The notes: generated by a model not told the origin, from the letters alone. Counted from the stretch's first letter, positions 24,784 to 46,964 are shown. The stretch: DNA of 64,000 bases from Clostridiales bacterium GWD2_32_19 (GCA_001795385.1 MGOU01000010.1:203-64202), one strand, 5' to 3'. Translations and numbers: made by a program.

Positions 24784-24855
24784 ATAATACTGATAAAATA
24801 TATTGAATATGAAGGGATAGTGTAGTATTTAGTACTATAAATATTTTACACTACC
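24784..24855 (+). repeat. family 2 hairpin repeat, copy 1 (long form), upstream of valS
   Basis: Core gggatagtgtagtatttagtactataaatattttacactacc at 24814-24855, with a 5' extension ataatactgataaaatatattgaata. It ends 24 nt before the ATG. Confidence 0.9.
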
Positions 24856-24878
24856 AATATAAGAAGGGAGAGATTTTA

Positions 24879-27524
24879 ATGAAAAAAGAGTTAGAAACAA
24901 AATATAATCCACAGGAGATGGAAGATAGAATTTATAAAAAATGGCAGGATGAAAAGTATTTTGAGGCAGTGGTTGACAAGAGCAAAAAACCCTACAGTAT
25001 AGTAATGCCACCACCAAATGTAACGGGGGTTTTACATATAGGGCACGCGCTTAACAATTCTTTACAAGACATACTTATAAGATGGAAAAGAATGCAGGGA
25101 TACTCTGTGCTTTGGGTACCTGGGACCGATCATGCTAGTATATCAACAGAGGTAAAAGTTGTTGATAAACTTTTAAAGGAAGGTATAAAGAAAACTGATA
25201 TAACAAGGGAAGAATTTTTAAAAGAAGCATGGGATTGGACTCATAAGTATGGGGGAACTATAGTTAGTCAATTAAGAAAGCTAGGGGTATCATGTGACTG
25301 GTCTCGTGAGAGATTTACAATGGACGAAATGTGTAGTAAAGCAGTACTTGAATCATTCGTTAAGCTTTATGAAAAAGGGTATATATATAGAGGTGAGAGG
25401 ATAACAAATTGGTGTCCACACTGTAAGACAACTATATCTGATGCAGAGGTAGAATATGAAGAGGTTGGGGGCAAATTTTATCATATAAAATATATGATAG
25501 AAGGAACTGATGAATTTCTACAAGTGGCTACAACAAGACCTGAGACAATGTTTGGAGATACTGCTGTAGCGGTAAATCCAAATGACACAAGATACAAAAA
25601 GTATGTTGGTAAAAATGTAATATTACCTATTACAAATAAAAAGATACCAGTAGTTGCTGACGAGCACGCAGATATGGAGTTTGGAACAGGTGTTGTCAAA
25701 ATAACTCCAGGGCATGATCTTAATGATTTTGAAGTAGGTAAAAGAAAAAAATTACCTATAGTTATATGTATAAATGACGATGGTACAATGAATAAAAACG
25801 CTATGCAATATGAGGGTATGGATAGATATGAATGTAGAAAACAAGTTGTAAAGGACCTTGAAACACAAGGACTGTTAGTTAAAGCAGAGGAGCACATTCA
25901 CAATGTAGGAACTCATGATAGATGTAAAATTGTTATTGAACCAATAGTTAAAATGCAATGGTTTGTAGCTATGGAAGAACTTGTAAAACCAGCAATAAGA
26001 GTAGTAAAAACAGATGAAGTACATTTCGTAACAGAAAGGTATGAAAAAATATATATGCACTGGCTAGAAAATATAAGAGACTGGTGTATATCAAGACAAC
26101 TTTGGTGGGGACACAGGATACCTGCTTACTATTGTGATGATTGTGGAGAGATTACTGTATCTATGACTACGCCAAGCAAGTGTAACAAATGTAGTAGTAG
26201 CAATTTAAAACAAGATGAAGATGTTCTTGATACATGGTTCAGCTCTGCATTATGGCCCTTCTCAACTATGGGATGGCCAGATAAAACAGAAGATTTGGAA
26301 TTTTTTTATCCTACAGATGTTTTGATAACAGGTCCTGATATAATATTCTTTTGGGTAGCTCGTATGGTGTTTTCAGGACTTGAATATATGGATAAAATAC
26401 CTTTTAAAGATGTGCTTATAAATGGTATTGTTCGTGACTCAGAAGGTAGAAAAATGAGTAAGTCACTAGGTAATGGTATTGATCCGATAGATGTTGTAGA
26501 AAAATATGGTGCTGATGCTATGAGGTTTATGCTTGTTAGCAATAACACACCAGGAAATGACATGAGATTCTATTGGGATAAGGTTGAAGCAAGTCGTAAT
26601 TTTGCAAACAAGATATGGAACGCGACAAGATTCATAATGATAAACATGGATGAAGAGATGTCAGATATAAATACAGAAAACCTCACCATATCGGATAAAT
26701 GGATATTATCTAGAGTAAATACACTTGCAAAAGAAGTAACAGAGAATATGGAAAAATATGATTTAGGAGTTGGAGCACAGAAAATACAAGACTTCTTGTG
26801 GAGCGAGTACTGCGACTGGTATGTAGAAATGGTAAAGCCAAGATTATATAATAAAGAGGATGAAACCCGACATGCAGCACTCTGGACACTAAAGACTGTA
26901 CTAATAAATGCATTGAAACTGCTACATCCATATATGCCTTTTATCACAGAAGAAATATTTACTACGCTTCAAGATACTGAGGAGACAATAGTACATGCTA
27001 AATGGCCGGAATACAATTTTAAATGGAATTTTGCGAGTGAAGAAGAACAAACAGAAATCATAAAAGATATAGTAAAAGGTATTAGAAATGCAAGACTAGA
27101 AAAGAATATAGTACCATCAAGAAAAATAAGGGCAGTGATAGTGACAGAGGATAGAACTCTTATGGATACAATAGAAAAACAAAAAGATATATTTAATATA
27201 CTTGTTAATACAAATGAGATAAGTGTTTTAACACAAAAAAATACAGATACAGACAATGCTATATCTATAATAGTAAAAAATGCAATCGTTTATTTACCAC
27301 TTAAAGGGCTTATAGATTTTGATCAGGAGATAGAAAGATTAGGTAAGGAAAAAGAAAGACTAGAAAAAGAAATAGAAAGAATAGATGTTAAATTAGCAAA
27401 CGAAGGTTTTGTAGCAAAAGCTCCAGCTAAAGTAATAGAGGAAGAAAAGGAAAAAAGGAATGGATACAAAAATATGTTAGGAAAAGTTTCGGAAGAGATA
27501 AAAAGTTTAGAAGTTAACAAATAG
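24879..27524 (+). CDS. valS: valine--tRNA ligase
   Basis: HIGHALN and KMSKS motifs, a C-terminal coiled coil, 881 aa. Confidence 0.97.
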   Translation: MKKELETKYNPQEMEDRIYKKWQDEKYFEAVVDKSKKPYSIVMPPPNVTGVLHIGHALNNSLQDILIRWKRMQGYSVLWVPGTDHASISTEVKVVDKLLKEGIKKTDITREEFLKEAWDWTHKYGGTIVSQLRKLGVSCDWSRERFTMDEMCSKAVLESFVKLYEKGYIYRGERITNWCPHCKTTISDAEVEYEEVGGKFYHIKYMIEGTDEFLQVATTRPETMFGDTAVAVNPNDTRYKKYVGKNVILPITNKKIPVVADEHADMEFGTGVVKITPGHDLNDFEVGKRKKLPIVICINDDGTMNKNAMQYEGMDRYECRKQVVKDLETQGLLVKAEEHIHNVGTHDRCKIVIEPIVKMQWFVAMEELVKPAIRVVKTDEVHFVTERYEKIYMHWLENIRDWCISRQLWWGHRIPAYYCDDCGEITVSMTTPSKCNKCSSSNLKQDEDVLDTWFSSALWPFSTMGWPDKTEDLEFFYPTDVLITGPDIIFFWVARMVFSGLEYMDKIPFKDVLINGIVRDSEGRKMSKSLGNGIDPIDVVEKYGADAMRFMLVSNNTPGNDMRFYWDKVEASRNFANKIWNATRFIMINMDEEMSDINTENLTISDKWILSRVNTLAKEVTENMEKYDLGVGAQKIQDFLWSEYCDWYVEMVKPRLYNKEDETRHAALWTLKTVLINALKLLHPYMPFITEEIFTTLQDTEETIVHAKWPEYNFKWNFASEEEQTEIIKDIVKGIRNARLEKNIVPSRKIRAVIVTEDRTLMDTIEKQKDIFNILVNTNEISVLTQKNTDTDNAISIIVKNAIVYLPLKGLIDFDQEIERLGKEKERLEKEIERIDVKLANEGFVAKAPAKVIEEEKEKRNGYKNMLGKVSEEIKSLEVNK

Positions 27525-27558
27525 GTATGTTCTCGATGCCCTAAAATAGGAGGATAAC

Positions 27559-28896
27559 ATGGATAAAAAATATTATATAATTTATAATAAAGAGAATGCA
27601 GAAGATATAAAGAAATTGGTTGTAGACTTTAAAAACATTGGGATGATAATTATTAGACAAGAGCTTGGGAAAAAAGAGAAGTTCGATTTGAAGAGCTTAA
27701 AGGTTCGTGAAAATGGGCAGAAAGAGATTGACGAAAACTCTGTACTTTTATTTTATATGGATAGCGATGTAGAACAAGTATCTATGCCAAAAGGTTATGA
27801 ACAGCATGCAATATACATATACAAGGGCGTAAAAGCAGGAAAAAAAGATAGTTCTTTATTATTAGATGAACTTTATGACAATTATTATAAAGACTTATTA
27901 CAAGCGTCAGAACCTGAAAAGGCTAATGAATATATAGAGCTTTTTAGGATAAAATCCATTCAAAACGATTTAGACAAAGATACAGAGTTATTGAAATTTT
28001 TAGATAAATATGGTGAAACTAAAAATTATTTGACACTTAAAGCAAATACAATATACCGCAGGAAGCAATTTAAAGAAGCGAGAGAACTGATGGATAAGGC
28101 ACTTACCATTACTTTAAATGATCCAAGGGAAAGCTTCGAATATGCTATATTATTAGAAGATTATTACGAAGAGTATGGCAAAGCTTGTAAGTACTACGAA
28201 AGAGCGATAGAGTTAGATAAAAAGTTTTATGAGGCATACTTTAATCTTGGAGTAATATATGCTAAACACTTTAATGACTATGTAAAGGCGGAGAAATATT
28301 ATGATATGCTAATAGAAGCAGATATCGCGGATGAGAAGGTATATTATAATAAAGCAATTATCATAATGAAGATAACAGGAAATGTAGAAGAAGCCATATG
28401 TTCATATAAAAAGGCTATAGAGATTGATCCTAAGCATTTTTCGGCATACAATAACTTAGCTAACTTGTACTTAAAAGAGCTTAACGACCCGGATAAAGCC
28501 AAGGAGTGCTACGAAAAAGCAATAGATATAACACCTCAAGATTTTGGAGTACATTTTAATCTTGGAAATATATACAAAAGTTGTTTTAATGACTATGAAA
28601 AAGCTAAAGAGTGTTATGAAAACTCGATAAAAGTAGAAGATAATATATATGCAAGAATGAATCTTGCTATTCTCCTTGAAGAAAATTTCGATGACTACAA
28701 TGGTGCAATAGAAAACTTAAATAAAGTGCTTGAATTCCAACCTAATAATATAACGATAATGAATCAAATCGCAAGTATATACGAACTTGTGAGTGACTAT
28801 GAAAATGCATTAAAATTTTATGAGAAGATACTTGAGTATAAAGTTGATGATGCCTCTGCAAAATATAATATGGCAAGAATGAGGCAAAAAATGTAG
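27559..28896 (+). CDS. TPR-repeat protein with unassigned ~130-aa N-terminal domain
   Basis: About 8 TPR-like units recur in the C-terminal two thirds (A..YE.AIE.D..., Y.NLG.IY). Confidence 0.75.
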   Translation: MDKKYYIIYNKENAEDIKKLVVDFKNIGMIIIRQELGKKEKFDLKSLKVRENGQKEIDENSVLLFYMDSDVEQVSMPKGYEQHAIYIYKGVKAGKKDSSLLLDELYDNYYKDLLQASEPEKANEYIELFRIKSIQNDLDKDTELLKFLDKYGETKNYLTLKANTIYRRKQFKEARELMDKALTITLNDPRESFEYAILLEDYYEEYGKACKYYERAIELDKKFYEAYFNLGVIYAKHFNDYVKAEKYYDMLIEADIADEKVYYNKAIIIMKITGNVEEAICSYKKAIEIDPKHFSAYNNLANLYLKELNDPDKAKECYEKAIDITPQDFGVHFNLGNIYKSCFNDYEKAKECYENSIKVEDNIYARMNLAILLEENFDDYNGAIENLNKVLEFQPNNITIMNQIASIYELVSDYENALKFYEKILEYKVDDASAKYNMARMRQKM

Positions 28897-28949
28897 AGAG
28901 TAGAAATATGTAAAAAAATAGAAAAAAGAGTTGACAAATGAAGTTTTTT

Positions 28950-28992
28950 CTGATAAATTAATATATTGTAGCATAATAAATTAATTTATCAG
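28950..28992 (+). promoter_or_regulatory. 13-bp perfect inverted repeat abutting the SD of the acetate-transporter gene
   Basis: ctgataaattaat (28950-28962) pairs with attaatttatcag (28980-28992), and the 3' arm runs directly into the aggagg SD. Confidence 0.35.
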
Positions 28993-29001
28993 GAGGATAA
29001 C

Positions 29002-29619
29002 ATGAATACAAATCAAACACAAGATGTTAAAGTAGTAAATGCAGATCCATCAGCATTAGGATTGTTTGGACTTGCAATGGTAACATTAGTAGCTTCATCT
29101 CAAAAACTTGGTATTACAGACGGGACTGCCTTTATACTGCCATGGGCAATTTTTTTGGGGGGATTTGCACAATTATTTGCATGTATCAATGATTCAAAGA
29201 GACAAAATGTTTTTGGAACAGTAGCATTCGGGGGATACGCGTTTTTCTGGTTCGGGGTAGCAGCTTCTTGGCTTATCCAAGCAGGAGTATTTGGACAAGA
29301 ATTAGCTAGTAAAGTGGATCCAAAACAGTTAGGCGTTGCATTTGTAGGATATTTAATATTCTCAATATTTATGACAATAGGTGCTATGGAAACTAATAAA
29401 GTATTATTTGTTATATTATTTTTCATCGATTTATTGTTTATAGGACTTGCGGCAACATCTTTCAACATTATGCCTGAAGTAGCCCATAAATTAGCAGCAT
29501 ATTCAGAGATGATTATTGCAGTATTATCTTTTTATGCTTCAGCAGCAGCAGTGTTAAATGCTCATTTTGGGAAGATATTTTTACCAACTGGCAAAGCATT
29601 TGGAATATTTAAGAAGTAA
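29002..29619 (+). CDS. GPR1/FUN34/YaaH (AceTr/SatP) family acetate-succinate transporter
   Basis: NADPSALGLFGLAMVT N-terminal signature, 6 TM helices, 205 aa. Confidence 0.85.
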   Translation: MNTNQTQDVKVVNADPSALGLFGLAMVTLVASSQKLGITDGTAFILPWAIFLGGFAQLFACINDSKRQNVFGTVAFGGYAFFWFGVAASWLIQAGVFGQELASKVDPKQLGVAFVGYLIFSIFMTIGAMETNKVLFVILFFIDLLFIGLAATSFNIMPEVAHKLAAYSEMIIAVLSFYASAAAVLNAHFGKIFLPTGKAFGIFKK

Positions 29620-29748
29620 TTTTAATTACAAAATATTACAAATAAATAACAAATTATAATCGTAAGATAATTAACAGAATAAGAATTTTAAATTACCAAT
29701 ATAGAAGAGCAGAGGAAAACAGCTTGAAGTAAGGACATAATTAAATAT

Positions 29749-29789
29749 GAAAAAAACAGCATATGTTTTTGAAACAATGCTGTTTTTTC
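29749..29789. terminator. bidirectional terminator
   Basis: aaaaacagcat / atgctgttttt stem between convergent genes. Confidence 0.75.
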
Positions 29790-29810
29790 ATGCTTTAATT
29801 AGGGGGATAA

Positions 29811-30212
29811 TTAAACTGCATTTCTTACTATTGCAACTATTTTATCAATTGGGATGTCAACTACCGAACCAATATTGAAAATGAAGCCTCTATCGCATTT
29901 TCTATCAGGGTCAGGGCATCCACCGCCTCTTCTTCCACCATAGCCTAGGCCACCATAACCGTCATAACCTCTGCCATAGTTGCCATAGTCTCCACATCCA
30001 CCCCTTGAGCATCCGTTTCCTAAAGCGCATCCAGGAGCAGGGCCGATACATGTAGTTATTCTTATAAAACATGGGTTAACTTTTATAATTACACCTGTGA
30101 ATCCACAACCAGATTGTCCTCCGCTTTCAGTAAATATTGTTACTGTTTCACCAATTTGATCGACCAAGTGGTCTACGAGTTTTACATCGCAACAAAAATT
30201 ATTATCTGACAT
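29811..30212 (-). CDS. Cys/Gly/Tyr-rich protein, probable spore coat-type structural protein
   Basis: 133 aa with 13 Cys. The central low-complexity region is GCSRGGCGDYGNYGRGYDGYGGLGYGGRRGGGC, flanked by beta-rich segments. It has a strong SD (aagggaggg) and a sigma-K-like promoter upstream. Confidence 0.6.
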   Translation of the reverse strand: MSDNNFCCDVKLVDHLVDQIGETVTIFTESGGQSGCGFTGVIIKVNPCFIRITTCIGPAPGCALGNGCSRGGCGDYGNYGRGYDGYGGLGYGGRRGGGCPDPDRKCDRGFIFNIGSVVDIPIDKIVAIVRNAV

Positions 30213-30227
30213 ATTAAGCCCTCCCTT

Positions 30228-30265
30228 ATATTATATAGTAGGATTTTAATCCTACTATATAATAT
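30228..30265. promoter_or_regulatory. 38-bp perfect palindrome overlapping the candidate -10 of the Cys/Gly-rich gene
   Basis: atattatatagtaggatt-tt-aatcctactatataatat, with 18-bp arms and no mismatch. Confidence 0.6.
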
Positions 30266-30285
30266 GAACAAGCTATAAAATGTGT
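30258..30285 (-). promoter_or_regulatory. sigma-K-like promoter (AC-N17-CATATTATA)
   Basis: The minus strand reads ac-(17 nt)-catattata, matching the B. subtilis sigma-K consensus AC-N16/17-CATAnnnTA (from memory). Confidence 0.4.
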
Positions 30286-30363
30286 TACAGCTTGTCTAAA
30301 ATACTTATTTAAAAATGGTTTTGATAAATAAAAAATAATTAATCAAAAATTTTCATAAATTCA

Positions 30364-30392
30364 TTGACAAAAATAAAGAAATAGAATATAAT
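30364..30392 (+). promoter_or_regulatory. consensus sigma-A promoter for the DUF134-trx operon
   Basis: TTGACA, 17-nt spacer, TATAAT, followed by the palindrome tgcatatgca (30394-30403). Confidence 0.75.
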
Positions 30393-30424
30393 ATGCATAT
30401 GCACAAAATACCAGGAGGTATAAA

Positions 30425-30703
30425 ATGCCAAGGAATAAAAAAGAGAAAAACTGTAGATGTTTAGAGGGTGAAATATGCTACTCGCCGATAGACAAAAAGG
30501 GAATAGAAGGTGAAATAAACCTTATAGAACTCGCTGAATTTGAAGCAATGAGGTTATGTGATCTTGAAGGTAAAAGTCAGATAGAAGCCGGAACTATAAT
30601 GAACATTTCACGGGGTACGGTGCAGAGATTACTAGAGATAGGGCGCAAAAAAGTAATAGATTCACTACTTAACTATAAATGCATAAAAGTTAAGAAATTA
30701 TAA
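30425..30703 (+). CDS. DUF134/UPF0251 family putative DNA-binding protein
   Basis: MPRNKKEKNCR...EFEAMRLCDLEGKSQIEAGTIMNISRGTVQRLL has a sigma-70 region-4-like HTH typical of DUF134. Confidence 0.75.
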   Translation: MPRNKKEKNCRCLEGEICYSPIDKKGIEGEINLIELAEFEAMRLCDLEGKSQIEAGTIMNISRGTVQRLLEIGRKKVIDSLLNYKCIKVKKL

Positions 30704-30722
30704 AATAAAAGGAGGAATAAAG

Positions 30723-31037
30723 ATGGTAAAGGTATTAGATAGTACAAATTTTGATTCAGCAATTAATACGGGTGTAACGATAGTTGATTTCTACGCAGAT
30801 TGGTGTGGGCCATGTAAGATGATGGGGCCAGTTATGGAAAATATATCAGATGAAGTTGAAAATGTGAGCGTATGCAAGGTAAATGTTGATAAGGCCAATG
30901 ATATTGCAGCGAAATACAATGTAATGAGCATTCCTACATTTATTATATTTAAAGACGGTAATCAGGTAGAAACTTTTAAAGGTGCAATGCCGAAAGAGAT
31001 GATTACAAGCAAGTTAAATAAGTTCATAAATCAGTAA
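30723..31037 (+). CDS. trxA: thioredoxin
   Basis: WCGPCK active site, 104 aa. Confidence 0.95.
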   Translation: MVKVLDSTNFDSAINTGVTIVDFYADWCGPCKMMGPVMENISDEVENVSVCKVNVDKANDIAAKYNVMSIPTFIIFKDGNQVETFKGAMPKEMITSKLNKFINQ

Positions 31038-31058
31038 TCAGTAATCAGTAATCAGTAT
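31031..31058 (+). repeat. 7-bp tandem repeat (tcagtaa x3 plus tcagtat) starting in the trx stop codon
   Basis: Direct reading: tcagtaatcagtaatcagtaatcagtat. Confidence 0.9.
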
Positions 31059-31210
31059 TTGAAAATGCACATGTCCAAGGTGTGTATTTTTATGTTAAGA
31101 ATTAACTATTTATATTTCAAAAGCATAAAAATTATAGAATTTACTATAAATGCATAATATAGAAAACAAGACATAAATATGTAGTAACTATAAATCGCAG
31201 GAGGTAGAAC

Positions 31211-31393
31211 ATGAAATTAGTAGTTAAAAAAGATAGATGCCCCCAGAATCATCCATGTCCATCAATTAGAGTATGTCCAGTAAATGCATTAAAGCAGAAA
31301 GGATATTCAGCACCAGAAGTGGATCAAGAGGTGTGTATAAAATGTGGCAAGTGTGTCAAGTATTGCCCAATGAAAGCGTTGGTATTAGAATAA
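31211..31393 (+). CDS. small 4Fe-4S cluster-binding protein (60 aa)
   Basis: CIKCGKCVKYCP plus CPQNHPCPSIRVCP. Confidence 0.7.
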   Translation: MKLVVKKDRCPQNHPCPSIRVCPVNALKQKGYSAPEVDQEVCIKCGKCVKYCPMKALVLE

Positions 31394-31491
31394 AATAAAC
31401 CACAAAATATCATGATAAACTTATAAACTCCAAAGTATGATGTTTGCTGAAAAATTGACTAAACTCTAGTATAGGGTTGGTCAATTATTAT

Positions 31492-31645
31492 AAACAATGA
31501 AGTTTATAATAACTCTACAATGACGATCTTATCAGTAGATAAAGTATTGGAAAAAATAATTTATATGATATATTTAATATTCTCTTTCGAAAATAAAGAG
31601 GATATTTTTTGTGTAAAAAATTCTTTCATTTCACTTAATTGTTCT
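31492..31645. repeat. ~150-bp direct repeat, copy 1 (ABC-exporter 3'-end remnant plus genuine splB 3' end)
   Basis: Aligns with 34691-34839 at roughly 85% identity by eye. 31492-31543 mimics the last codons of the ABC gene, with a 1-nt deletion. Confidence 0.8.
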
Positions 31646-32682: not shown

Positions 32683-32711
32683 TTGACAAAATAATGAAAT
32701 AGACATATAAT
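32683..32711 (+). promoter_or_regulatory. perfect consensus sigma-A promoter upstream of the ABC exporter
   Basis: TTGACA (32683-32688), 17-nt spacer, TATAAT (32706-32711). Confidence 0.75.
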
Positions 32712-32739
32712 AATTTAAAATACATAAGAGAAAGTGTCT

Positions 32740-32817
32740 ATGATGATTAATTTTGTGAATGATACTAGAAATGAATATGTAAGTTATATTGTAGATACTA
32801 ATTGTCAAGTTTTATAG
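32740..32817 (+). CDS. candidate 25-aa leader peptide
   Basis: ATGATG... translates to MMINFVNDTRNEYVSYIVDTNCQVL. It lies between the consensus promoter and a hairpin plus T6. The SD is weak (agagaaag). Confidence 0.3.
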   Translation: MMINFVNDTRNEYVSYIVDTNCQVL

Positions 32818-32860
32818 AGTTACTTTTATTTTGAAAAATAAAATAAAATAATATATAAAT

Positions 32861-32892
32861 GGTACCGTGTCTATGTAGGTACGGTGTTTTTT
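32861..32892 (+). terminator. candidate attenuator/terminator
   Basis: ggtaccgtgtctatgtaggtacggtg followed by tttttt; the stem is ~8 bp including G-U pairs. Confidence 0.45.
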
Positions 32893-32909
32893 GATTGGCA
32901 ATTATTAGT

Positions 32910-32951
32910 GGGATAGTGTAGTATTTAGTACTATGAATATTTTACACTACC
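32910..32951 (+). repeat. family 2 hairpin repeat, copy 2, upstream of the ABC exporter
   Basis: gggatagtgtagtatttagtactatgaatattttacactacc; ends 24 nt before the ATG. Confidence 0.9.
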
Positions 32952-32974
32952 AGTAGTGAAGAGAGGGTGACTTA

Positions 32975-37012: not shown

Positions 37013-39139
37013 ATGGAAGTGGCTAGAAAATTACTTAAGCAGTACTTTGGATATGATGAGTTTAGAAAAGGACAAAAAGATATAATAGAAAGCATTTTAA
37101 ATAAAAAAGATGTAATGGGTATTATGCCAACGGGTGGTGGTAAATCTATATGTTTTCAGATACCAGCACTTATATTTGAAGGTGTTACGATAGTGATATC
37201 ACCACTTATATCGCTTATGAAAGACCAAGTAGATTCATTGAATATAGTAGGAATACCTGCTACATTTATTAATAGTTCATTATCTACAACGGAGTATAGA
37301 AATAGAATGATGGCTATACAAAACAACAAATATAAAATCATATATGTTGCACCTGAAAGACTTGAAAGTGAGGCATTTATAGCCTCAATGAAGAGGATAA
37401 ACATATCTCAAATAGCCATAGATGAGGCTCATTGCGTATCACACTGGGGGCATGATTTTAGAAAAAGCTATATAAAGATAAAAGATTTTATTGATATTTT
37501 TAGTATTAGACCTATAATTACAGCATTTACAGCTACTGCGACAGAAGAAGTAAAAAAAGATATTACAGTGCAGTTAGGACTTAAATCTCCTAATATCACA
37601 ATAACAGGTTTTGACCGAGAAAACCTAAAATTGATTATAGTGAGAAATGCTAGCAAACAAAAGTTTATAGTAAGTTACATAGAAGAAAATAAACATGTTT
37701 CGGGTATAATATATTGTGCTACAAGAAAAGAAACTGACAAATTACACACTTTGCTTAGCAAATTAGGGTATAGTGTGGGGAAATATCATGCCGGAATGAG
37801 TGAAAGTTCGAGAGAAAAGAGTCAGGAAGATTTTTTGTATGATAACAAAAGCATTATGATAGCTACCAATGCTTTCGGTATGGGGATAGATAAGTCTAAT
37901 ATACGTTATGTTATACATAATAATATGCCAAAAAATCTGGAAGCATATTATCAAGAAATAGGTAGAGCGGGTCGTGATGGTGAGAAGAGCGAGTGCGTAT
38001 TGCTGTTTGGAAGTCAAGATATAATACTTCAAAAATACTTTATTGAAGAGCTTGGAGATAGCTCAGAAGCTGTAAAGCAAAACAAATACGAGCAACTCCA
38101 AAGAATGATAGATTATTCATATACTACAAGCTGCCTAAGAAAGCATGTTTTAAATTATTTTGGAGAGGAACGTGCGGATGAAAAATGTGATAACTGTAGC
38201 AATTGTAGTGATTATTTAGAAAAGAAGGATATGACGATAGAGGCTCAAAAAATATTATCATGTGTATATAGAATGAACCAGCGTTTTGGAACAAACATAG
38301 TGACAAAAGTACTCAAAGGTTCACACGCACAGCAAACAGATTCATTTAGGGAGTTATCTACATTTGGAATCATGAAAGAATGTGCAGTGAACGATATAAA
38401 AGAATATATAAATGTACTAATAGCAGACGGATATTTGAAAATGGAGGGTGACAAGTACCCTATAATAAAACTTACAGAGAATTCTGCAAAAATTTTAAAA
38501 GAAAATGATAAGGTATACATACAAACCATAAAACACAAAGAAGTGTCAGAAAATGAGGGACTGTTCGAGATATTAAGACAACTTAGAAAAGAAATTTCGG
38601 TAGAAGAAAATGTACCGCCATTTGTTGTATTTAGTGATGCAACACTCAAAGAAATGTCGAGTAGATATCCAATAAGTAAGGCACAGATTTTGAATATATC
38701 TGGAGTGGGAGAAGTAAAATATGAAAAATATGGAGAAAGATTTATAGATGAGATAAAAGCATATATACATAACAATAATTTAGACATAGATAATATGAAA
38801 TCAGATACTAAAACTTATACTTCACATAAAATAAAAGAAACAAATAAAGAAGCCAGCTACATCACAACAGCAAACCTATATTTAAACCTTAGAGATATGG
38901 ATGCAGTAGTCAAAGAGCGAAATCTAAAGCCAATGACAATACAGGATCATATAATATCTGCATACATGGAAGGATTTCAATTAGACATAAATGAGTTTAT
39001 TCCTAAAGGACAAGAAAGTTTTGTACTTGAAGCAATCAAAAAGGTAGGCACAGAAAAGTTAAGGCCGATAAAAGATCTACTACCAGAGGATGTAAGCTAC
39101 CTAACAATAAAGGCAGTAATAGCAAAACATAAGTTATAA
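37013..39139 (+). CDS. recQ: ATP-dependent DNA helicase RecQ
   Basis: MPTGGGKS, DEAHCVSHWGHDFR, a Zn-binding Cys cluster (CDNCSNC), and an HRDC-like region. ATG 37013 is preferred over the tracked TTG 36980. Confidence 0.92.
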   Translation: MEVARKLLKQYFGYDEFRKGQKDIIESILNKKDVMGIMPTGGGKSICFQIPALIFEGVTIVISPLISLMKDQVDSLNIVGIPATFINSSLSTTEYRNRMMAIQNNKYKIIYVAPERLESEAFIASMKRINISQIAIDEAHCVSHWGHDFRKSYIKIKDFIDIFSIRPIITAFTATATEEVKKDITVQLGLKSPNITITGFDRENLKLIIVRNASKQKFIVSYIEENKHVSGIIYCATRKETDKLHTLLSKLGYSVGKYHAGMSESSREKSQEDFLYDNKSIMIATNAFGMGIDKSNIRYVIHNNMPKNLEAYYQEIGRAGRDGEKSECVLLFGSQDIILQKYFIEELGDSSEAVKQNKYEQLQRMIDYSYTTSCLRKHVLNYFGEERADEKCDNCSNCSDYLEKKDMTIEAQKILSCVYRMNQRFGTNIVTKVLKGSHAQQTDSFRELSTFGIMKECAVNDIKEYINVLIADGYLKMEGDKYPIIKLTENSAKILKENDKVYIQTIKHKEVSENEGLFEILRQLRKEISVEENVPPFVVFSDATLKEMSSRYPISKAQILNISGVGEVKYEKYGERFIDEIKAYIHNNNLDIDNMKSDTKTYTSHKIKETNKEASYITTANLYLNLRDMDAVVKERNLKPMTIQDHIISAYMEGFQLDINEFIPKGQESFVLEAIKKVGTEKLRPIKDLLPEDVSYLTIKAVIAKHKL

Positions 39140-39207
39140 TACTGATAAAATATATTGAATAAAAAGGGATAGTGTAGTATTTAGTACTATAAATATTTTA
39201 CACTACC
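39136..39207 (+). repeat. family 2 hairpin repeat, copy 3 (long form), overlapping the recQ stop
   Basis: ataatactgataaaatatattgaata...gggatagtgtagtatttagtactataaatattttacactacc. Confidence 0.9.
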
Positions 39208-39223
39208 TAATGGAGATGGAGGG

Positions 39224-39854: not shown

Positions 39855-39892
39855 TAAATAGAAGGACAGATTATCCAATCTGTCCTTCTATT
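39855..39892. terminator. bidirectional terminator
   Basis: aaatagaaggacagatt / aatctgtccttctattt, 17-bp arms. Confidence 0.8.
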
Positions 39893-41271: not shown

Positions 41272-41467
41272 TTGTCTACCTCATTTCTCTAAACATTAGT
41301 TTTGCACAGTATATAACATAATATTACAAAAATCTTACAATGTCAATTATTTTTTAAAAATGGAACATAAAAATTATTGTATTAGAAATGAATATATGGT
41401 AGAATAATGATTAGTAATAAAGGAAAAATTTATGAAGATACTATATATAAATGGAGGATGAAGACGA

Positions 41468-42304
41468 ATGATAGAACTAGGGAAGATGCAATATTTGAAA
41501 ATAGATAAAATGGGACCGATTGGTTTATTGCTTATATCAGAGGATAACAGCCGCGAGGATGTACTACTTCCAGCTGAGCAAGTGCCTACTGGAGGGGTAC
41601 AAGTTGGAGATGAGATTGAGGTGTTTGTATATAAAGATACTAATGATGATTTAACAGCCACAACACAAAAACCAAAGTTAGAGGTTGGTGAAATAGATTA
41701 TTTAAATGTAGTTGATCTAACACAAGTAGGAGCATTTCTTGATTGGGGTCTTAAAAAAGACTTATTTATACCGTACACAGAACAAAAAGGAAAATTGGTA
41801 AAAAATGAAAAATACTTGGTTGGATTATATATAGATAAAAGTGATAGGATATGTGCGACTATGTATATCGACAATGTACTAAAAAGTGACTCTCCATATC
41901 AAAAAAATGATAAAGCAGAAGGGTTTATATATGATATAAAGGAAGACATGGGAGCATTTGTAGCAGTAGATAGGAAGTACCACGGACTTATACCAAAAAG
42001 TGAATTATACAAATACTATAGCTTAGGTGATGAAGTGGAAGTTAGGATAACTAATGTAAGAGAAGATGGAAAGCTAGATCTCAGTCTAAGAGAAAAGGCA
42101 TATTTACAGATGGATATGGATGCAGAAACAATAATGGAACGATTAAATAATAATGATGGTATACTGAATTTAAATGACAATAGCTCTCCTGAAAATATAA
42201 AGTTGCAACTAAACATAAGTAAGAAAGCCTTTAAAAGGGCAGTAGGAACTTTACTCAAAAATGGAAAGATTGAGTTTGTCGATGATGGCATAAAATTAGT
42301 GTGA
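41468..42304 (+). CDS. cvfB: S1-domain RNA-binding protein (CvfB/YitL family)
   Basis: MIELGKMQYLKIDK...LLPAEQVP...GDEIEVFVYKD and repeated S1-like segments. Confidence 0.7.
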   Translation: MIELGKMQYLKIDKMGPIGLLLISEDNSREDVLLPAEQVPTGGVQVGDEIEVFVYKDTNDDLTATTQKPKLEVGEIDYLNVVDLTQVGAFLDWGLKKDLFIPYTEQKGKLVKNEKYLVGLYIDKSDRICATMYIDNVLKSDSPYQKNDKAEGFIYDIKEDMGAFVAVDRKYHGLIPKSELYKYYSLGDEVEVRITNVREDGKLDLSLREKAYLQMDMDAETIMERLNNNDGILNLNDNSSPENIKLQLNISKKAFKRAVGTLLKNGKIEFVDDGIKLV

Positions 42305-42317
42305 TAGGAGAAAAGAA

Positions 42318-42509
42318 ATGAATGGAAAGAATAGAAGTGATGTAAAAATAGGAACGCATGTTCAAATTGTACAAAAACAAGATCAGCGTTCTGGAAAGCT
42401 AACGGATGGAACGGTTGAGAGGATTTTGACTAATAGTCTAACTCATCCACATGGAATAAAAGTTCAATTAGTCGGTGGGATTGTAGGAAGAGTGCAGAAC
42501 ATTATTTAA
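42318..42509 (+). CDS. ywbE: YwbE family small protein
   Basis: VQIVQKQDQRSGKLTDGTVERILTNS..HPHGIKV.L..G..GRV. Confidence 0.75.
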   Translation: MNGKNRSDVKIGTHVQIVQKQDQRSGKLTDGTVERILTNSLTHPHGIKVQLVGGIVGRVQNII

Positions 42510-42542
42510 TGTGAGATATGAGACAAATATGTTGAATATAAA

Positions 42543-42584
42543 GGGATAGTGTAGTATTTAGTACTATAAATATTTTACACTATC
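42543..42584 (+). repeat. family 2 hairpin repeat, copy 4
   Basis: gggatagtgtagtatttagtactataaatattttacactatc; ends 24 nt before the ATG at 42608. Confidence 0.9.
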
Positions 42585-42607
42585 ACATAAACCAAGGGGG
42601 AATATAT

Positions 42608-42826
42608 ATGTCAGAAATCAAATTTGAAATAACTAAGGAAATAGCGGTTTTGTCTGAAAGAGCTGGTGGGTGGACGAAAGAGATTAATATGGTTAGTTGG
42701 AATGATAGACCAGCCAAGTATGATATAAGGGAATGGACGACAGATCATGATAAGATGGGTAAAGGGATTACAATAAGTGAGGAAGAGATGATAGAATTAA
42801 AGAGGGCACTGGATAATTTAAAATAA
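42608..42826 (+). CDS. YdbC/PC4-like single-stranded nucleic-acid-binding protein
   Basis: FEITKEIAVLSE..GGWTKEINMVSWNDRPAKYDIREW. Confidence 0.7.
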   Translation: MSEIKFEITKEIAVLSERAGGWTKEINMVSWNDRPAKYDIREWTTDHDKMGKGITISEEEMIELKRALDNLK

Positions 42827-42901
42827 ATTTTGATAAAAAACAGTACTCATATCGAAATGCCCTATCAGTATGACATATAGAGGAAGTTTGGAGGAATTGA
42901 C

Positions 42902-43759
42902 TTGTATATAGTTTTATCATTAATTTCGGGAATTTTATTAGGTTTTTTTTATATAGCAAAAAAACAGGTCCTGAAAAATAACGATGTTATTGCAGTTTTG
43001 GCTACATATACAGTTATAAATCTCCTAATAAACTTAATAGACTATAAAATTGCATTTGAGATAGATAAGAAAATTTTAATATATATATTTATAAAAGCAG
43101 TTATTATATATATAGGTTGGATTTTATCAGGAAAAGCAATAAAAGAGCTACCACTTAGCATTTCTAGTCCATTAGGTATACTGTCCCCAGTGTTTACAGT
43201 AATTATAGGTATTTTGATACTCCATGAGAAATTGGGATATTCGCAGATTGCAGGGGTACTAATAATATTTGCGGGCTATTACTTTATAGGAAAAGTAGGT
43301 AAAGAAGAGGTAAACGATATATTTAAAAACAAATATGTTTATTATATGGCGATTGCTATGTCTATTGGAGCCATAAGTGCTACAATAGATAAGGTGCTTT
43401 TGAAGGAAGTTAAAGTTGAGCAATTACAATTTTGGTTTTACTTATTTATGGCTGTTTTATATGTAATTACAATTTTAATAATGAATGGTATCAACAAATA
43501 TAAAAATAAACCACTTATAAAATTTGAATTTACTTATATGATTGTTGTTGTGAGTGTGTTACTGTATTTGGCAGATAAGATATATTTTTATGCAGTAAAG
43601 CTTCCAGATAGCAGCATATCTATAGTTATGCCGCTTAGGTATGTATCTATAATTATATCTACTATAGTAGGAGGTATAATATTTAAGGAACAAAACATAA
43701 GCTTAAAGTTTAAATATATGATAGGAATTGCAATAGGGATAATTTTGATATTTATCTGA
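42902..43759 (+). CDS. EamA/DMT family transporter
   Basis: 10-TM layout, 285 aa, TTG start. Confidence 0.7.
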   Translation: MYIVLSLISGILLGFFYIAKKQVLKNNDVIAVLATYTVINLLINLIDYKIAFEIDKKILIYIFIKAVIIYIGWILSGKAIKELPLSISSPLGILSPVFTVIIGILILHEKLGYSQIAGVLIIFAGYYFIGKVGKEEVNDIFKNKYVYYMAIAMSIGAISATIDKVLLKEVKVEQLQFWFYLFMAVLYVITILIMNGINKYKNKPLIKFEFTYMIVVVSVLLYLADKIYFYAVKLPDSSISIVMPLRYVSIIISTIVGGIIFKEQNISLKFKYMIGIAIGIILIFI

Positions 43760-44432
43760 GTTTATCTAAATCAACAATACTTACTCTTTGTCTATCGAAG
43801 GTTATCATTCCTTCATCCCTCATCCGACAGAGCTCACGAGACATTGAAGAACGGGATACATTTAGAAAATCAGCGAGGTCATTGCGATTATGAGGCAAGG
43901 TAAAGGATGGATTGCCTGCCTTTTTATATTCATCCAAAATATAAGTAACCAGCTTTTGTCTCATACTTTTTATAGTGAGGTAGTCTACCTTTTTATTTAG
44001 CATGAGTACTTTTTTTGATAGTATTTCAAGTAAATTTTTTATTAGAATATTATGGTGAGAGCAGGTGTTTTCACATTGCCCTGGTATTTTTTCTTTAGGT
44101 ATGTACATGATTTTTGTATTTTCTATTGATAAAATTGATACAGGATATATGGCTTTATCCATGAATATTAGGGCTTCACCAAAAATATCACCTTGTTTTA
44201 GGATTCCTATTAAAGAGCTACTTCCAGAGTAGCTTTCTTTTATTAAAGATATAGAACCTTGAAGTACTACAGATAGATATCTCGCGGTGTCTCCCCGTAA
44301 AACGATATACTCGCTTTTAGTATAATCTTTTATAACTGGATTTAAGCAGGTTAGAAGACCTTCCAATTTTTTTGTTGAAATATTTGCAAATAGTTGGTTT
44401 TGGGATAATATTTTTATATAATCTTTAAACAT
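43752..44432 (-). CDS. Crp/Fnr family transcriptional regulator
   Basis: cNMP-binding-like N-terminus and C-terminal HTH RNDLADFLNVSRSSMSRELCRMRDEGMI. Confidence 0.88.
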   Translation of the reverse strand: MFKDYIKILSQNQLFANISTKKLEGLLTCLNPVIKDYTKSEYIVLRGDTARYLSVVLQGSISLIKESYSGSSSLIGILKQGDIFGEALIFMDKAIYPVSILSIENTKIMYIPKEKIPGQCENTCSHHNILIKNLLEILSKKVLMLNKKVDYLTIKSMRQKLVTYILDEYKKAGNPSFTLPHNRNDLADFLNVSRSSMSRELCRMRDEGMITFDRQRVSIVDLDKLR

Positions 44433-44449
44433 AGTTTGTTTTCTCCTTT

Positions 44450-44465
44450 TGTAGCTATAGCAACA
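44450..44465. promoter_or_regulatory. candidate Crp/Fnr-type operator
   Basis: tgtagctatagcaaca is palindromic at 7 of 8 pairs (TGT-N10-ACA) and lies in the divergent intergenic region. Confidence 0.4.
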
Positions 44466-44533
44466 GACTTTTGAACATTATTATATTATAATATGAACAT
44501 AAAGTCAATAACAGATGAAAGGGGATGTTTTTT

Positions 44534-45247
44534 ATGTTAAGGAATATAATAAAGATTGATGCAGATAAATGTAATGGTTGTGGACTTTGTGTAAGTGCAT
44601 GTCATGAAGGAGCACTACAATTAATAGATGGTAAGGCAAAACTTATGTCTGAGTCATATTGTGATGGGTTAGGTGATTGCTTGCCAGAATGTCCAGTGGG
44701 TGCGATAATTATAGAAGAAAGGGAAGCCGCTGTATATGACGAGGAAGCTGTGAAACAACACATAGAGAGTAAGAAAGAGGAAGTAAAACCTCTTGCGTGC
44801 GGTTGTCCAGGCACTCATTCGAGAAGTATAGAAAGGAAATTACACAAAGTAGAGTCAAAGCAAGAAAATACTAAGGTGGAATCAGAACTTAGACAGTGGC
44901 CTTGCCAGATTAAGCTTGTACCAGTAAATGCGCCGTATTTTGAAAATGCAAATTTGCTAATAGCGGCAGACTGTACAGCATATGCTTATGCTAATATTCA
45001 TAATGATTTTATGAGAAATAAGATTACTATAATTGGCTGTCCAAAGCTTGATGAAGGAGACTATGCTGATAAATTGACACAAATACTTGAGAATAATAAT
45101 ATAAAGAGTGTTACGGTATTGAGGATGGAAGTACCATGTTGTGGAGGTTTAGCACATGCAGCAAAATGTGCACTTATAAATTGTGGAAAAATGATTCCGT
45201 GGAGTATTGTGACTATAGGGACGGATGGAAGTGTGATAGAGGATTAA
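44534..45247 (+). CDS. 4Fe-4S dicluster domain protein with Cys-rich C-terminal domain
   Basis: CNGCGLCVSAC and CDGLGDCLPECP. ATG 44534 is preferred because aaagggg lies 9 nt upstream; the tracked start is 44525. Confidence 0.8.
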   Translation: MLRNIIKIDADKCNGCGLCVSACHEGALQLIDGKAKLMSESYCDGLGDCLPECPVGAIIIEEREAAVYDEEAVKQHIESKKEEVKPLACGCPGTHSRSIERKLHKVESKQENTKVESELRQWPCQIKLVPVNAPYFENANLLIAADCTAYAYANIHNDFMRNKITIIGCPKLDEGDYADKLTQILENNNIKSVTVLRMEVPCCGGLAHAAKCALINCGKMIPWSIVTIGTDGSVIED

Positions 45248-45285
45248 AGAAAAAACCTAATTATTTAGGTTTTTTTCTTTAATCC
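45241..45285 (+). terminator. rho-independent terminator with ~20-bp stem
   Basis: ggattaaagaaaaaacctaa / ttaggtttttttctttaatcc. Confidence 0.8.
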
Positions 45286-45512
45286 TTAACTATATATATT
45301 GTTATTACGAGAAGGAATGAAAAAGTAATTTCGCGTTCTTTACTGAGACACATAGACTAATAGTAAAGATAGTCTCTTTCTTTTTAAAAGCCCAAAAAGA
45401 AACAAAAAGCCTTTTTCACCCTAAATCCCGCTAGGGACTTTGCTCACAAACTTTTGCTACTCCGCTATCGCGTCACACGCACGATTGCGAGTAAGGAGCT
45501 TTGCGAATTTAT

Positions 45513-45568
45513 TTAAAAGATTAAAAGATTAAAAGATTAAAAGATTAAAAAGATAAAAGATTAAAATA
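45513..45568. repeat. 8-bp microsatellite (ttaaaaga x4 perfect, then 3 degenerate units)
   Basis: Direct reading: ttaaaagattaaaagattaaaagattaaaagattaaaaagataaaagattaaaata. Confidence 0.9.
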
Positions 45569-45639
45569 ATTAAACTTGATAAGTTTAATTATTTTTGATA
45601 TGATAGTACAAAGATAAAAAGTTATATGAGGTGATGTTA

Positions 45640-46920
45640 GTGGAAAGAGATTTATATGTGAGTGTTTCGGATTTAAATAAATATATAAAAGATAGATTGA
45701 AGTCAGATGAAGCTCTTATGAATGTGTTTATAAGAGGAGAAATCTCCAATTTTAAAGATCATTTTAGGGGGCATTATTATTTTAGTATAAAAGATGAAGG
45801 TTCTAAGATTGATGCAGTTATGTTTTCAAATAAAAATAAATATTTAAATTTTAAACCGCGTGATGGTATGAAAGTTTTAGTTGTAGGAGCTATAGATGTA
45901 TATGAGGTCACAGGCTCTTACCAAATATATGTTGAGATTATGGAAGAGGATGGACTAGGAAATCTACATATGAAATTTGAAAAGTTAAAAGAAAAACTTG
46001 CAAATGAGGGACTTTTTGATGTAGTGCATAAGAAGGAAATACCAAAATTTCCACATACGATAGGGATCGTAACTGCACCAACGGGCGCGGCAGTAAAAGA
46101 CATATTAAGTACCATCGAAAGAAGGAACCCTGCTACAAAGACTATAATTTTTCCTACACTGGTTCAAGGAGAAGGCGCAAAAGAAAGCATAGCACTTCAA
46201 ATAGAGAGAGCACAAAACTACGATATAGATGTACTAATTGTCGGTCGTGGAGGTGGCTCTATTGAGGATTTGTGGGCATTTAATGAGGAAATAGTAGCTA
46301 GAGCAATATATAACTCCAAAATACCTATTATATCAGCTGTAGGCCATGAGATAGATTTCACGATAGCTGATTTTGTAGCTGACATGAGAGCACCGACTCC
46401 AACAGGAGCAGCAGAAATGGCAGTACCTAATGTGTTAGATGTATTAGAGAACTTGGAGCAAATGAATACCAGGATGACAAACAGTATGAAGAATACGATT
46501 AAGACATATATGACAAAGCTAGAAACACTAACAAATTCTAGAGTTTTGACAAAACCTATGGAAATGTATGCATTAAAAGAACAACAGCTCGATAATATAT
46601 TGGAGAGATTTAGAGTAGGATTTATTAATTATTATAATACTAAAAATAATAATATTGATTACTTGATTGACAAATTAAACATGCTGAGCCCTCTAAATAG
46701 TTTGAAAAGGGGATATTCTTTTACAACATTAGAAGACGGAAATATGCTCAAGTCGGTGAATAATGTAAGAATAGGAGAAAGAGTTACTATAGAAGTAGTT
46801 GATGGCAAACTTTCAGCGATAGTAGGAGCCACGCATATGGGTAGTAAAGCATTAGAAGGCAGAAAAAAGGTCAAGATAAAAGGTGAAAATATAGACGATA
46901 TACAATTAAAATTAGAATAG
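45640..46920 (+). CDS. xseA: exodeoxyribonuclease VII large subunit
   Basis: VSDLNKYIK...ISNFKDH..GHYYFSIKD OB-fold N-terminus and ARGGGS-like GRGGGSIEDLW. The start is ambiguous (GTG 45631, ATG 45634 or GTG 45640). Confidence 0.9.
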   Translation: MERDLYVSVSDLNKYIKDRLKSDEALMNVFIRGEISNFKDHFRGHYYFSIKDEGSKIDAVMFSNKNKYLNFKPRDGMKVLVVGAIDVYEVTGSYQIYVEIMEEDGLGNLHMKFEKLKEKLANEGLFDVVHKKEIPKFPHTIGIVTAPTGAAVKDILSTIERRNPATKTIIFPTLVQGEGAKESIALQIERAQNYDIDVLIVGRGGGSIEDLWAFNEEIVARAIYNSKIPIISAVGHEIDFTIADFVADMRAPTPTGAAEMAVPNVLDVLENLEQMNTRMTNSMKNTIKTYMTKLETLTNSRVLTKPMEMYALKEQQLDNILERFRVGFINYYNTKNNNIDYLIDKLNMLSPLNSLKRGYSFTTLEDGNMLKSVNNVRIGERVTIEVVDGKLSAIVGATHMGSKALEGRKKVKIKGENIDDIQLKLE

Positions 46921-46922
46921 AA

Positions 46923-46964
46923 AGGATAGTGTAGTATTTAGTACTATAAATATTTTACACTACC
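46923..46964 (+). repeat. family 2 hairpin repeat, copy 5, between xseA and xseB
   Basis: aggatagtgtagtatttagtactataaatattttacactacc; ends 24 nt before the ATG at 46988. Confidence 0.9.

Follow-up and report, generated by a model that had tools for sequence, protein, structure and literature searches.

The hairpin repeat set before start codons in Clostridiales bacterium GWD2_32_19 is a MITE with a 40-bp core

A short repeat that precedes the start codons of unrelated genes in Clostridiales bacterium GWD2_32_19 is a MITE, i.e., a non-autonomous DNA transposon. Its placement is probably best explained by oriented, targeted insertion beside translation-initiation signals, which the transposase seems to read, and choice of the insertion site accounts better for the register than an RNA action of the element does. 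The window, i.e., the whole analyzed stretch of 64,000 nucleotides (MGOU01000010.1:203-64202), holds five of the 36 non-redundant copies considered here, and the remaining ~31 lie on metagenome contigs of a sister species. This sample comprises one genome window and loci fetched by an exact 19-mer, and diverged or differently placed copies could be missed in it.

Copies in the window and architecture of the element

A first-pass annotation of the window had described a 42-nt repeat at five sites in one orientation, and all five are indeed present on the + strand with 0-1 mismatches, where none are expected (100 shuffles; Table 1). Its gene names also stand. NCBIfam confirmed valS, the MsbA-like ABC exporter, xseB and xseA, while the 72-aa gene after copy 4 is of the PC4/YdbC type according to a Pfam match on the sister-species orthologue. 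Copy 1 lies between valS and the preceding T-box with its terminator, copies 3-5 are intercistronic, and a 5' arm is common to copies 1 and 3 and partial in copy 4, all as previously described. The T-box matches RF00230 (24435-24686), and copies 3-5 sit after the stop codons of recQ, ywbE and xseA. The near-constant gap to the ATG stands as well, though the earlier values of 24, 24, 23, 24 and 24 are counts by position, and the intervening bases number 23, 23, 22, 23 and 23. At copy 3 the plausible start is ATG 39230: it is preceded by GGAGGG at a distance of 6 nt, and this motif directly adjoins ATG 39224. The boundary of the repeat had to be moved: copy 5 and the target-site duplications place the first two G of the 42-mer outside the mobile core, which begins GATAG.

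Table 1. Positions of the repeat copies, their modules and flanking duplications, and the T-box leader in the window
Feature	Position	Strand	Remark
valS T-box leader and terminator	24435-24743	+	RF00230, 112 bits; just upstream of copy 1
42-mer, copies 1 to 5	24814-24855, 32910-32951, 39166-39207, 42543-42584, 46923-46964	+	
Copy 1, left-hand modules	24757-24783	+	degenerate; A remnant with nested insert, then B: cagggagggagaag
Copy 1, module C	24784-24815	+	ATAATACTGATAAAATATATTGAATATgAAGG
Copy 1, core D	24816-24855	+	GATAGTGTAG...TACACTACC, 40 bp; 23 nt before valS ATG 24879
Copy 2, left target-site duplication	32904-32911	+	ATTAGTGG; 6/8 match to right flank
Copy 2, solo core D	32912-32951	+	A26G variant; 23 nt before ABC-exporter ATG 32975
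Copy 2, right target-site duplication	32952-32959	+	AGTAGTGA
Copy 3, module C	39136-39167	+	first bases overlap recQ stop codon (39137-39139)
Copy 3, core D	39168-39207	+	22 nt before ATG 39230; SD GGAGGG 39218-39223
Copy 4, module C	42510-42544	+	diverged or partial; immediately 3' of ywbE stop codon
Copy 4, core D	42545-42584	+	C41T; 23 nt before PC4/ydbC-like ATG 42608
Copy 5, left target-site duplication	46917-46924	+	ATAGAAAG; includes xseA stop TAG (46918-46920)
Copy 5, solo core D	46925-46964	+	23 nt before xseB ATG 46988
Copy 5, right target-site duplication	46965-46972	+	ATAGAAAG; perfect 8/8; xseB SD GAAGGAG directly next

The minimal mobile unit is the 40-bp core (GATAGTGTAGTATTTAGTAC/TATAAATATTTTACACTACC, i.e., GATAGTGT...ACACTACC). 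It has terminal inverted repeats, with GATAGTGT(A/C)... at the left end and GGTAGTGTAAAATA... as the reverse complement of the right end, and 15-16 positions are paired between the halves of the 40-mer. As the core consists of two imperfect inverted ends placed back to back, a hairpin fold is unavoidable. Among the 36 copies the core carries 0-2 substitutions, and the units span 40-330 bp and contain no transposase gene. Longer forms (72-330 bp), which contain cargo modules as well as nested MITEs, have a right end identical to that of the core; as their left end the end motif occurs a second time (GATAGTGTCAAAAG... or GATAGAAT...). The 32-nt module C was found in 25 of the 36 copies, and the left-hand modules of copy 1 match a consensus (...aaacctc...aatgaCAGGGAGGGGGAAG) present in ~20 composite copies. 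At the left boundaries of copies 1, 3 and 4 neither an end nor a duplication is recognizable; deletion, 5' truncation and repeated insertion at the same spot are possibilities for their history. A simple insertion model does not explain locus L023, where modules A-B-C lack the core and yet lie 23 nt from an ATG with a 7/8 duplication.

Evidence for mobility and the search for a parent element

The first-pass annotation had contrasted the repeat with MITEs, and this contrast was wrong: the ends of the repeat are inverted, 8-bp target-site duplications flank it, and the sister species lacks the element at three of the five sites in the window (valS, ywbE/PC4 and xseA/xseB). The duplications match at 8/8 positions at copy 5, L004, L027 and L010 and at 7/8 in three other copies; the null probability of a flank match of at least 7/8 is 0.0026 per pair. 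Between xseA and xseB the sister species has a precise empty site, reading ...gagTAGAAAGGAAGGGG... in L034 and likewise empty in L035 and L036, and the filled site shows an exact gain of 48 bp (40+8). Merely 14 nt separate ywbE and the PC4 gene there, and the valS site, at which core D of copy 1 follows the T-box terminator, is without an element (L056-L058).

In the sister species, at 88-89% protein identity, other genes have ~30 near-identical copies. Between the two species the copies share 98-100% identity and the flanking coding DNA only 85-91%. Such near-identity across diverged flanks indicates young insertions, and their distribution therefore mirrors insertion and not long selection.

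A search of ~450 kb of related loci, phage and plasmid records, and viral contigs brought up neither an autonomous element nor a transposase with these ends. Pairs of left and right ends 0.5-3.5 kb apart did not occur in any locus, the viral contigs gave no match to the core or the left end, and the plasmid and phage records gave no BLAST match to the 116-nt composite. Eighteen viral-contig matches to the 17-nt right end were all attributable to chance. So was the only match of the core 19-mer in the genome collection, which fell within coding sequence of a MAG that is unrelated; this collection evidently does not include the source species. As no transposase was found, we infer both its family and the targeting mechanism. 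Ends of the form G(A/G)...TG with 8-bp duplications would presumably fit IS256, IS1, IS6 or ISL3.

Register to start codons and its possible causes

The fixed register and orientation pointed out earlier are real and unusual, and they hold in 36 independent copies from two species. Every copy (36/36) is sense to the downstream gene, whose SD and start codon come next on the strand of the element. Some 70% of the copies (25-27 of 36) have a 23-nt spacer before the start codon, and in most of the remainder it measures 22-26 nt; the G-run of the Shine-Dalgarno sequence begins at +11/+12 from the element, and solo 40-bp copies have the same orientation and spacer as the longer forms. The 8-bp target has no consensus beyond background, and a sharply phased SD at -12 to -8 is the sole mark of occupied sites. 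The element-to-start distance has a standard deviation of 1.36 compared to ~2.3 simulated for SD-only targeting (p = 0.0002), with 1.6-1.8 for the background SD-to-start spacing, and the offset is related to the SD-to-start spacing with r = -0.72. Nearly all copies lie where GC skew is positive, so that gene orientation is confounded with leading-strand orientation; because the skew tracks local gene orientation, it cannot separate gene from replication orientation. Upstream neighbours were also classified by stop-to-stop ORFs, but noise on the antisense strand made the result unusable.

From this distribution we propose that a transposase acting in trans would make 8-bp staggered cuts at a target determined by the neighbouring translation-initiation region, recognized as DNA, and not by the 8-bp target sequence. 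Insertion would always be in sense, with 11-12 bp from the right end to the GGAGG core downstream of it and 23 bp from the right end to the start codon. The SD and start codon would stay intact after insertion, which might explain why insertions are tolerated before essential genes, in operons and after a T-box terminator; a stop codon within the target would be duplicated, as at xseA. Once inserted, the element would be co-transcribed as a hairpin of ~-12 kcal/mol at about -63 to -24, and any influence on mRNA stability or translation is a putative side effect. We tentatively consider a DDE-type system whose selector reads the DNA of the SD core and the start codon, which are about one helical turn apart. 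Integration in fixed orientation one further turn upstream could then make the repeat a 'start-codon-homing' MITE with a 40-bp minimal unit, a possibility to which we give somewhat less than even weight. In a stronger form of this reading, the inserted hairpin may have been co-opted as a general 5' or intercistronic mRNA module in these Clostridia.

It is unlikely that the element is instead an exapted RNA module, i.e., a 5' or intercistronic stabilizer, a site of RNase processing, or a translational operator worked by a protein or an sRNA, with register and orientation set by selection for that function. The hairpin predicted earlier was confirmed (-11.8 kcal/mol, z = -2.7) and occurs in transcribed positions, after the T-box terminator and between cistrons; the antisense strand, however, folds equally well (-11.6 kcal/mol). 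Sense-strand pairing is preserved through G-U or G-C by 8/8 distinct stem transitions, with one-sided wobble changes in 8 pairs, which would agree with an RNA role. The excess is, however, not significant (p ~0.06) once the 19-mer ascertainment and base composition are allowed for, given that the 5' half was fixed by the search 19-mer and that the free stem bases are mostly A or C. Covariation is not significant (score 0.099 compared to 0.092 in shuffles, 71/500 as high), and the copies are too similar to inform. In Rfam the element has no match at the gathering threshold or at E<=1, and the T-box alone reaches the threshold in the window. Variants with half of the hairpin deleted or without the core keep the same register (L026, L027 and L023), the downstream genes are unrelated in function, and selection has had too little time to shape the distribution of such young copies.

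Selection could also have acted on random insertions into any AT-rich intergenic site in either orientation, such that only sense insertions just upstream of the SD survive. Intergenic DNA is short in this genome, and insertions nearer the SD or within genes would be harmful. We still regard this as very unlikely, as selection could impose a minimum distance and not a maximum one, none of the 36 copies lies farther upstream, at gene 3' ends or reversed, and the copies are near-identical and hence young. In addition, a second MITE family (170 nt) in the same genomes keeps no register and is tolerated at distances of 12-195 nt from the next start. A portable promoter or 5'-UTR cassette, whose outward promoter, perhaps along with a 5' hairpin, would serve the downstream gene, is highly improbable. 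Sequence inspection finds a resemblance to an extended -10 box in module C (TGATAAAAT), and promoter-bearing repeats have precedents in Correia elements and Neisseria REP2 (PMC3184786). However, module C is absent from the solo 40-bp copies, the element holds no sigma-70 consensus on the sense strand, and copies lie within operons (ywbE/PC4 and xseA/xseB) and behind the T-box, which a constitutive promoter would bypass. The element contains no terminator in either orientation. We see scarcely any chance that the repeat is a REP/RAYT-type or IS200/IS605-derived palindromic element (PATE) moved as single-stranded hairpin DNA, a reading already contradicted by the presence of 8-bp duplications. 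Such families are not known to make target-site duplications and insert on the 3' side of a fixed short motif, while the duplications found here vary in sequence and the empty site shows the exact 40+8 bp gain. Although the repeat is a small imperfect palindrome whose strict strand bias coincides with positive GC skew, its stem is A+T-rich and not G+C-rich, and copies are absent from gene 3' ends. A transcription-factor operator marking a regulon, which would be expected as degenerate sites before genes of related function and at conserved orthologous places, was rejected, as the copies are near-identical, the genes unrelated and the orthologous sites empty in the sister species.

Implications and relation to known systems

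If the register of this MITE reflects target choice, it would be the second mobile DNA homing to start signals after IS900, mechanistically different from it, and the first such DNA to have inverted ends and to duplicate its target site. This would also indicate a so far undescribed target-selection module able to gauge how far it is from the SD and start codon. The very small 40-bp substrate suits biochemical study. For annotation, a hairpin that recurs in identical form before many unrelated genes need not point to an RNA motif or a regulon; the present ones are the trace of a recent burst of transposition. With one and the same hairpin at -24 before dozens of genes, valS with its T-box and operon-internal genes among them, the insertions are a natural experiment in which one could measure how upstream structure affects translation and mRNA decay.

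Bacterial MITEs such as Nezha, Correia/NEMIS, RUP and bcr1 are similarly short and non-coding, with inverted ends, target-site duplications, many near-identical copies, filled versus empty sites in relatives, a transcribed hairpin and nesting. They differ in being merely 'intergenic' or in targeting short sequences such as TA, and a 40-bp minimal unit is unusually small for a MITE. Reviews of MITEs from 2024 and of small repeats from 2011 contain no MITE with a fixed start-codon distance and orientation (PMC10969869; PMC3184786).

Neisseria REP2 and Borrelia IR repeats lie in sense immediately upstream of many unrelated genes and have internal stem-loops (PMC3184786). Those repeats contain the promoter, RBS and ATG themselves and have no terminal inverted repeats. 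The present repeat, in contrast to REP2, stops 23 nt before the ATG, its flanks diverge immediately, and the SD pre-exists at the empty site. A REP2-type promoter/RBS repeat is thereby ruled out, as ATG and SD lie outside the repeat, which has no sigma-70 consensus. Mycobacterial MIRUs share the trait of being small repeats between operon genes in the direction of transcription; they overlap the flanking stop and start codons and form tandem units. To our knowledge, target-site duplications and inverted ends are not defining features of MIRUs.

IS900 of the IS110 family is described, in the account of it in PMC8141618 (citing Doran et al., 1997), as targeting the RBS and ATG in one orientation at the motif CATGNNNNNNTCTCCTT. 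The IS110 family uses a DEDD transposase with seekRNA-guided targeting (PMC11187229). The two elements share only the targeting of translation-initiation signals; IS900 inserts between RBS and ATG, whereas the present element lies 11 bp upstream of the SD. IS110 family members, which use a fixed target core, are not known to have terminal inverted repeats or to make target-site duplications, and the inverted ends and 8-bp duplications of arbitrary sequence rule out membership of the IS110/IS900 type.

Tn7, which TnsD directs to attTn7 downstream of glmS, serves only as a working analogy. It has 5-bp duplications, TGT...ACA ends, multiple TnsB sites and a single chromosomal site, and no Tn7 genes were seen here. 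The likeness lies in an adjoining conserved sequence that fixes the distance and orientation of insertion, so that the duplicated target itself is not the determinant and a harmless 'safe site' results.

Structure and mobility of the repeat

The 42-mer GGGATAGTGTAGTATTTAGTACTATAAATATTTTACACTACC matches the window at five positions, all on the forward strand and with 0-1 mismatches, while the chance expectation is none. A five-copy repeat in one orientation, at a nearly constant distance from the next start codon, had been described in the first-pass annotation, and both points hold. For copy 3 the distance is counted to ATG 39230, chosen for the GGAGGG 6 nt upstream. The described gene contexts are also borne out: the Rfam placement of the T-box puts copy 1 downstream of the T-box terminator and upstream of the valS Shine-Dalgarno sequence (SD), and copies 3, 4 and 5 come after the stop codons of recQ, ywbE and xseA, respectively.

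Features in and around the repeat copies (window coordinates unless a locus is named)
Feature	Position	Strand	Details
Copy 1	24814	+	valS downstream; 23 bases to start codon
Copy 2	32910	+	MsbA-like ABC exporter downstream; 23 bases
Copy 3	39166	+	204/206-aa ORF downstream; 22 bases
Copy 4	42543	+	72-aa PC4/YdbC-type gene downstream; 23 bases
Copy 5	46923	+	xseB downstream; 23 bases
Element left end			GATAGTGT
Element right end			ATTTTACACTACC
T-box	24435-24686		Rfam
Promoter-like site	32683-32711		perfect TTGACA-17-TATAAT, ABC-exporter leader
Terminator-like hairpin and T-run	32861-32895		just before copy 2
Second MITE-like repeat, ~170 nt	7435-7607, 12502-12676, 19110-19284, 60438-60612
Core-less element (modules A-B-C), metagenome locus L023	~160 nt upstream of ATG at reverse-complement ~11830	-

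The conserved block runs from GATAG (not GGG) to CACTACC, and a solo element measures 40 bp. On either side of copy 5 stands the same 8-mer, ATAGAAAG, as a perfect direct repeat, and the syntenic xseA/xseB site of a sister species reads ...gagTAGAAAGGAAGGGG... uninterrupted; thus, the window gained exactly 40 + 8 bp. The valS site of the sister species also lacks the element, and the ywbE/PC4 junction measures 98 nt in the window vs 14 nt in that species. Composite forms share the 40-mer as right end and start further left, at GATAGTGTCAAAAGTTTTATG when they carry the left-hand module A and at GATAGAAT in metagenome locus L010. Among the 11 copies with an A-type left end, flanking duplications match at 8/8 positions in two, 7/8 in three and 6/8 in one, the chance of at least 7/8 being 0.0026 per pair, and L010 adds a perfect duplication, TGGCTAAC. 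These duplications show that units of 98-329 bp, some with nested copies of another MITE, moved whole.

The element copies are 98-100% identical between the two species, whereas the flanking coding DNA is only 85-91% identical, and none of the insertion sites examined is common to both. Judged from these near-identical copies beside diverged flanks and from the unshared sites, the insertions are recent. The element is mobile DNA integrated with an 8-bp stagger, and its boundaries, duplications, empty sites and young age together identify it as a new MITE family; it is no free-standing RNA motif. What looks like a hairpin is a pair of inverted transposon ends placed back to back.

Some copies are atypical. 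Copies 1, 3 and 4 have no recognisable end at their left boundary, and in copy 4 the left-hand module C is much more diverged than the adjoining, nearly perfect core. This pattern suggests either more than one insertion in this register or deletions that came afterwards. The opening four bases of copy 3's module C (39136-39139) include the recQ stop codon TAA (39137-39139); the equivalent place in the sister species has TAG and then unrelated sequence. The core-less element of L023 ends 23 nt before its ATG, between flanks CAATAAAC and GAATAAAC (7/8 match), and may be an excision product or footprint of the core, or have an alternative right end.

Occurrence and start-codon register

A scan of representative genomes with a 19-mer from the core gave one chance match only. 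The same scan of metagenomes gave 32 loci, 27 with genuine copies and five in unrelated DNA that match by chance. The window's XseA and ValS match those of the MAG Clostridiales bacterium GWD2_32_19 at 100% identity. One locus (L059) is the window species from a different sample, with copies 1 and 2 unchanged. Loci with the prefixes Ga0209000, Ga0154497 and C687J13239 appear to be mainly the sister species, which includes GCA_001797235.1 and whose XseA and ValS are 88% and 89% identical to those of the window. After removal of duplicates, 36 copies remained, and every one (36/36) shows the repeat, ~11 nt, an SD G-run, ~7 nt and a start codon on the same strand.

Of the 36 copies, 25-27 have a spacer of 23 nt between element and start codon, most others one of 22-26 nt and three one of 27-28 nt (automated call). 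Counted from the last element base, a perfect GGAGG begins at +11 to +13, most commonly +12. The SD-to-start distance of element-free genes in the same DNA has an sd of 1.6-1.8 (n = 98 and 213). Despite noise in the automatic start calls, the element-to-start sd is 1.36, vs ~2.3 expected if only the SD were sensed (p = 0.0002), and the element-to-SD and SD-to-start distances compensate mutually (r = -0.72). Solo 40-bp copies keep the register, as do variants lacking half of the hairpin (L026, L027). The duplicated 8-mer has no consensus above the local A+T-rich background; the hallmark of occupied sites is instead a sharply phased G-run at -12 to -8.

The genes downstream of two copies are interrupted by in-frame stops or frameshifts; one is YyaL-like with a thioredoxin domain (L017, 5593 onward), the other a NUDIX gene (L029, 1270 onward). 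L017 has ATA at the expected start position. These broken genes may be pseudogenes or assembly errors.

In the same genomes, the second MITE-like family, TTTAATCTCTTTGGG...tgtcattgcga...tcgcaatgaca...GGGGAGATTCATT, keeps no fixed distance to the following start codon (12-195 nt). The register is thus specific to the hairpin MITE family and not general to intergenic repeats. Most second-family copies are 95-98% identical to sister-species copies, while window 7435-7607, L009, L014, L019 and L020 are at ~70-78%. A nested insert of ~80-100 nt with inverted ends tgtcattgcga/tcgcaatgaca is found at aaaaATGA^CAGGG in the composites of L002, L003, L005, L007, L009 and L027, in an orientation that differs by copy.

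In the sister species, a two-gene cassette of a DUF6036 protein and a 114-aa ORF separates the valS T-box terminator from valS (L056, 8740-10000; compared with window 24435-24878), where the window has the MITE. Foreign DNA has thus landed repeatedly in the T-box-to-valS spacer. The ABC-exporter leader (32683-32895) matches no Rfam family and may therefore be an undescribed attenuator or riboswitch.

RNA function or target choice

The first-pass annotation had read the register as unusual and as setting the element apart from MITEs; the 36 copies support the former, while the duplications and empty sites speak against the latter. The predicted fold was reproduced (-11.8 kcal/mol, z = -2.7), though the antisense strand folds equally well. 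A hairpin of about -12 kcal/mol ending at -24 could possibly affect mRNA decay or ribosome loading, and all 8 distinct stem transitions preserve sense-strand pairing. However, ~71% of random transitions would do so too (p ~0.06), since copies were collected with a 19-mer that leaves the 5' half invariant and most of the free stem positions are A or C. Covariation in the stem was not significant across copies, the element matched nothing in Rfam, and it contains no sigma-70 promoter or terminator consensus. RNA function thus found no support and is unnecessary for explaining the data.

The insertion sites have a strict orientation, although orientation to the gene is confounded with leading-strand orientation, and a narrow distance to SD and start codon. 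We infer that this distribution reflects target choice and not selection, because the copies are young, selection could enforce a lower limit on the distance but no upper one, and insertions of the second MITE family are tolerated whatever their distance. This would require an asymmetric target selector that reads the translation-initiation region as DNA and also orients the transpososome, as symmetric recognition cannot yield one orientation in 36/36. The steps from the insertion point to the GGAGG core and on to the ATG each span ~11-12 bp, close to one helical turn, so that all three could, speculatively, lie on one DNA face. The outcome is a safe site, with SD and start codon left intact; at xseA, the stop codon lies within the target and was merely duplicated.

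Comparison with known elements

No transposase with these ends was found in ~450 kb of related loci, viral contigs, and phage and plasmid records. The ends, G(A/G)nnnTG, and 8-bp duplications would be compatible with several IS families, such as IS256, IS1, IS6 or ISL3. The IS110 family, including IS900, is not known to have inverted ends or to make duplications, whereas the window element has both. The strict start-codon register has no counterpart in a 2024 MITE review or a 2011 small-repeat review (PMC10969869, PMC3184786) and is apparently undescribed. IS900, of the RNA-guided DEDD IS110 family (PMC11187229), is reported in PMC8141618 (citing Doran 1997) to target the RBS plus ATG, with the motif CATGNNNNNNTCTCCTT. 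The window element would resemble IS900 only in its targeting of translation-initiation signals.
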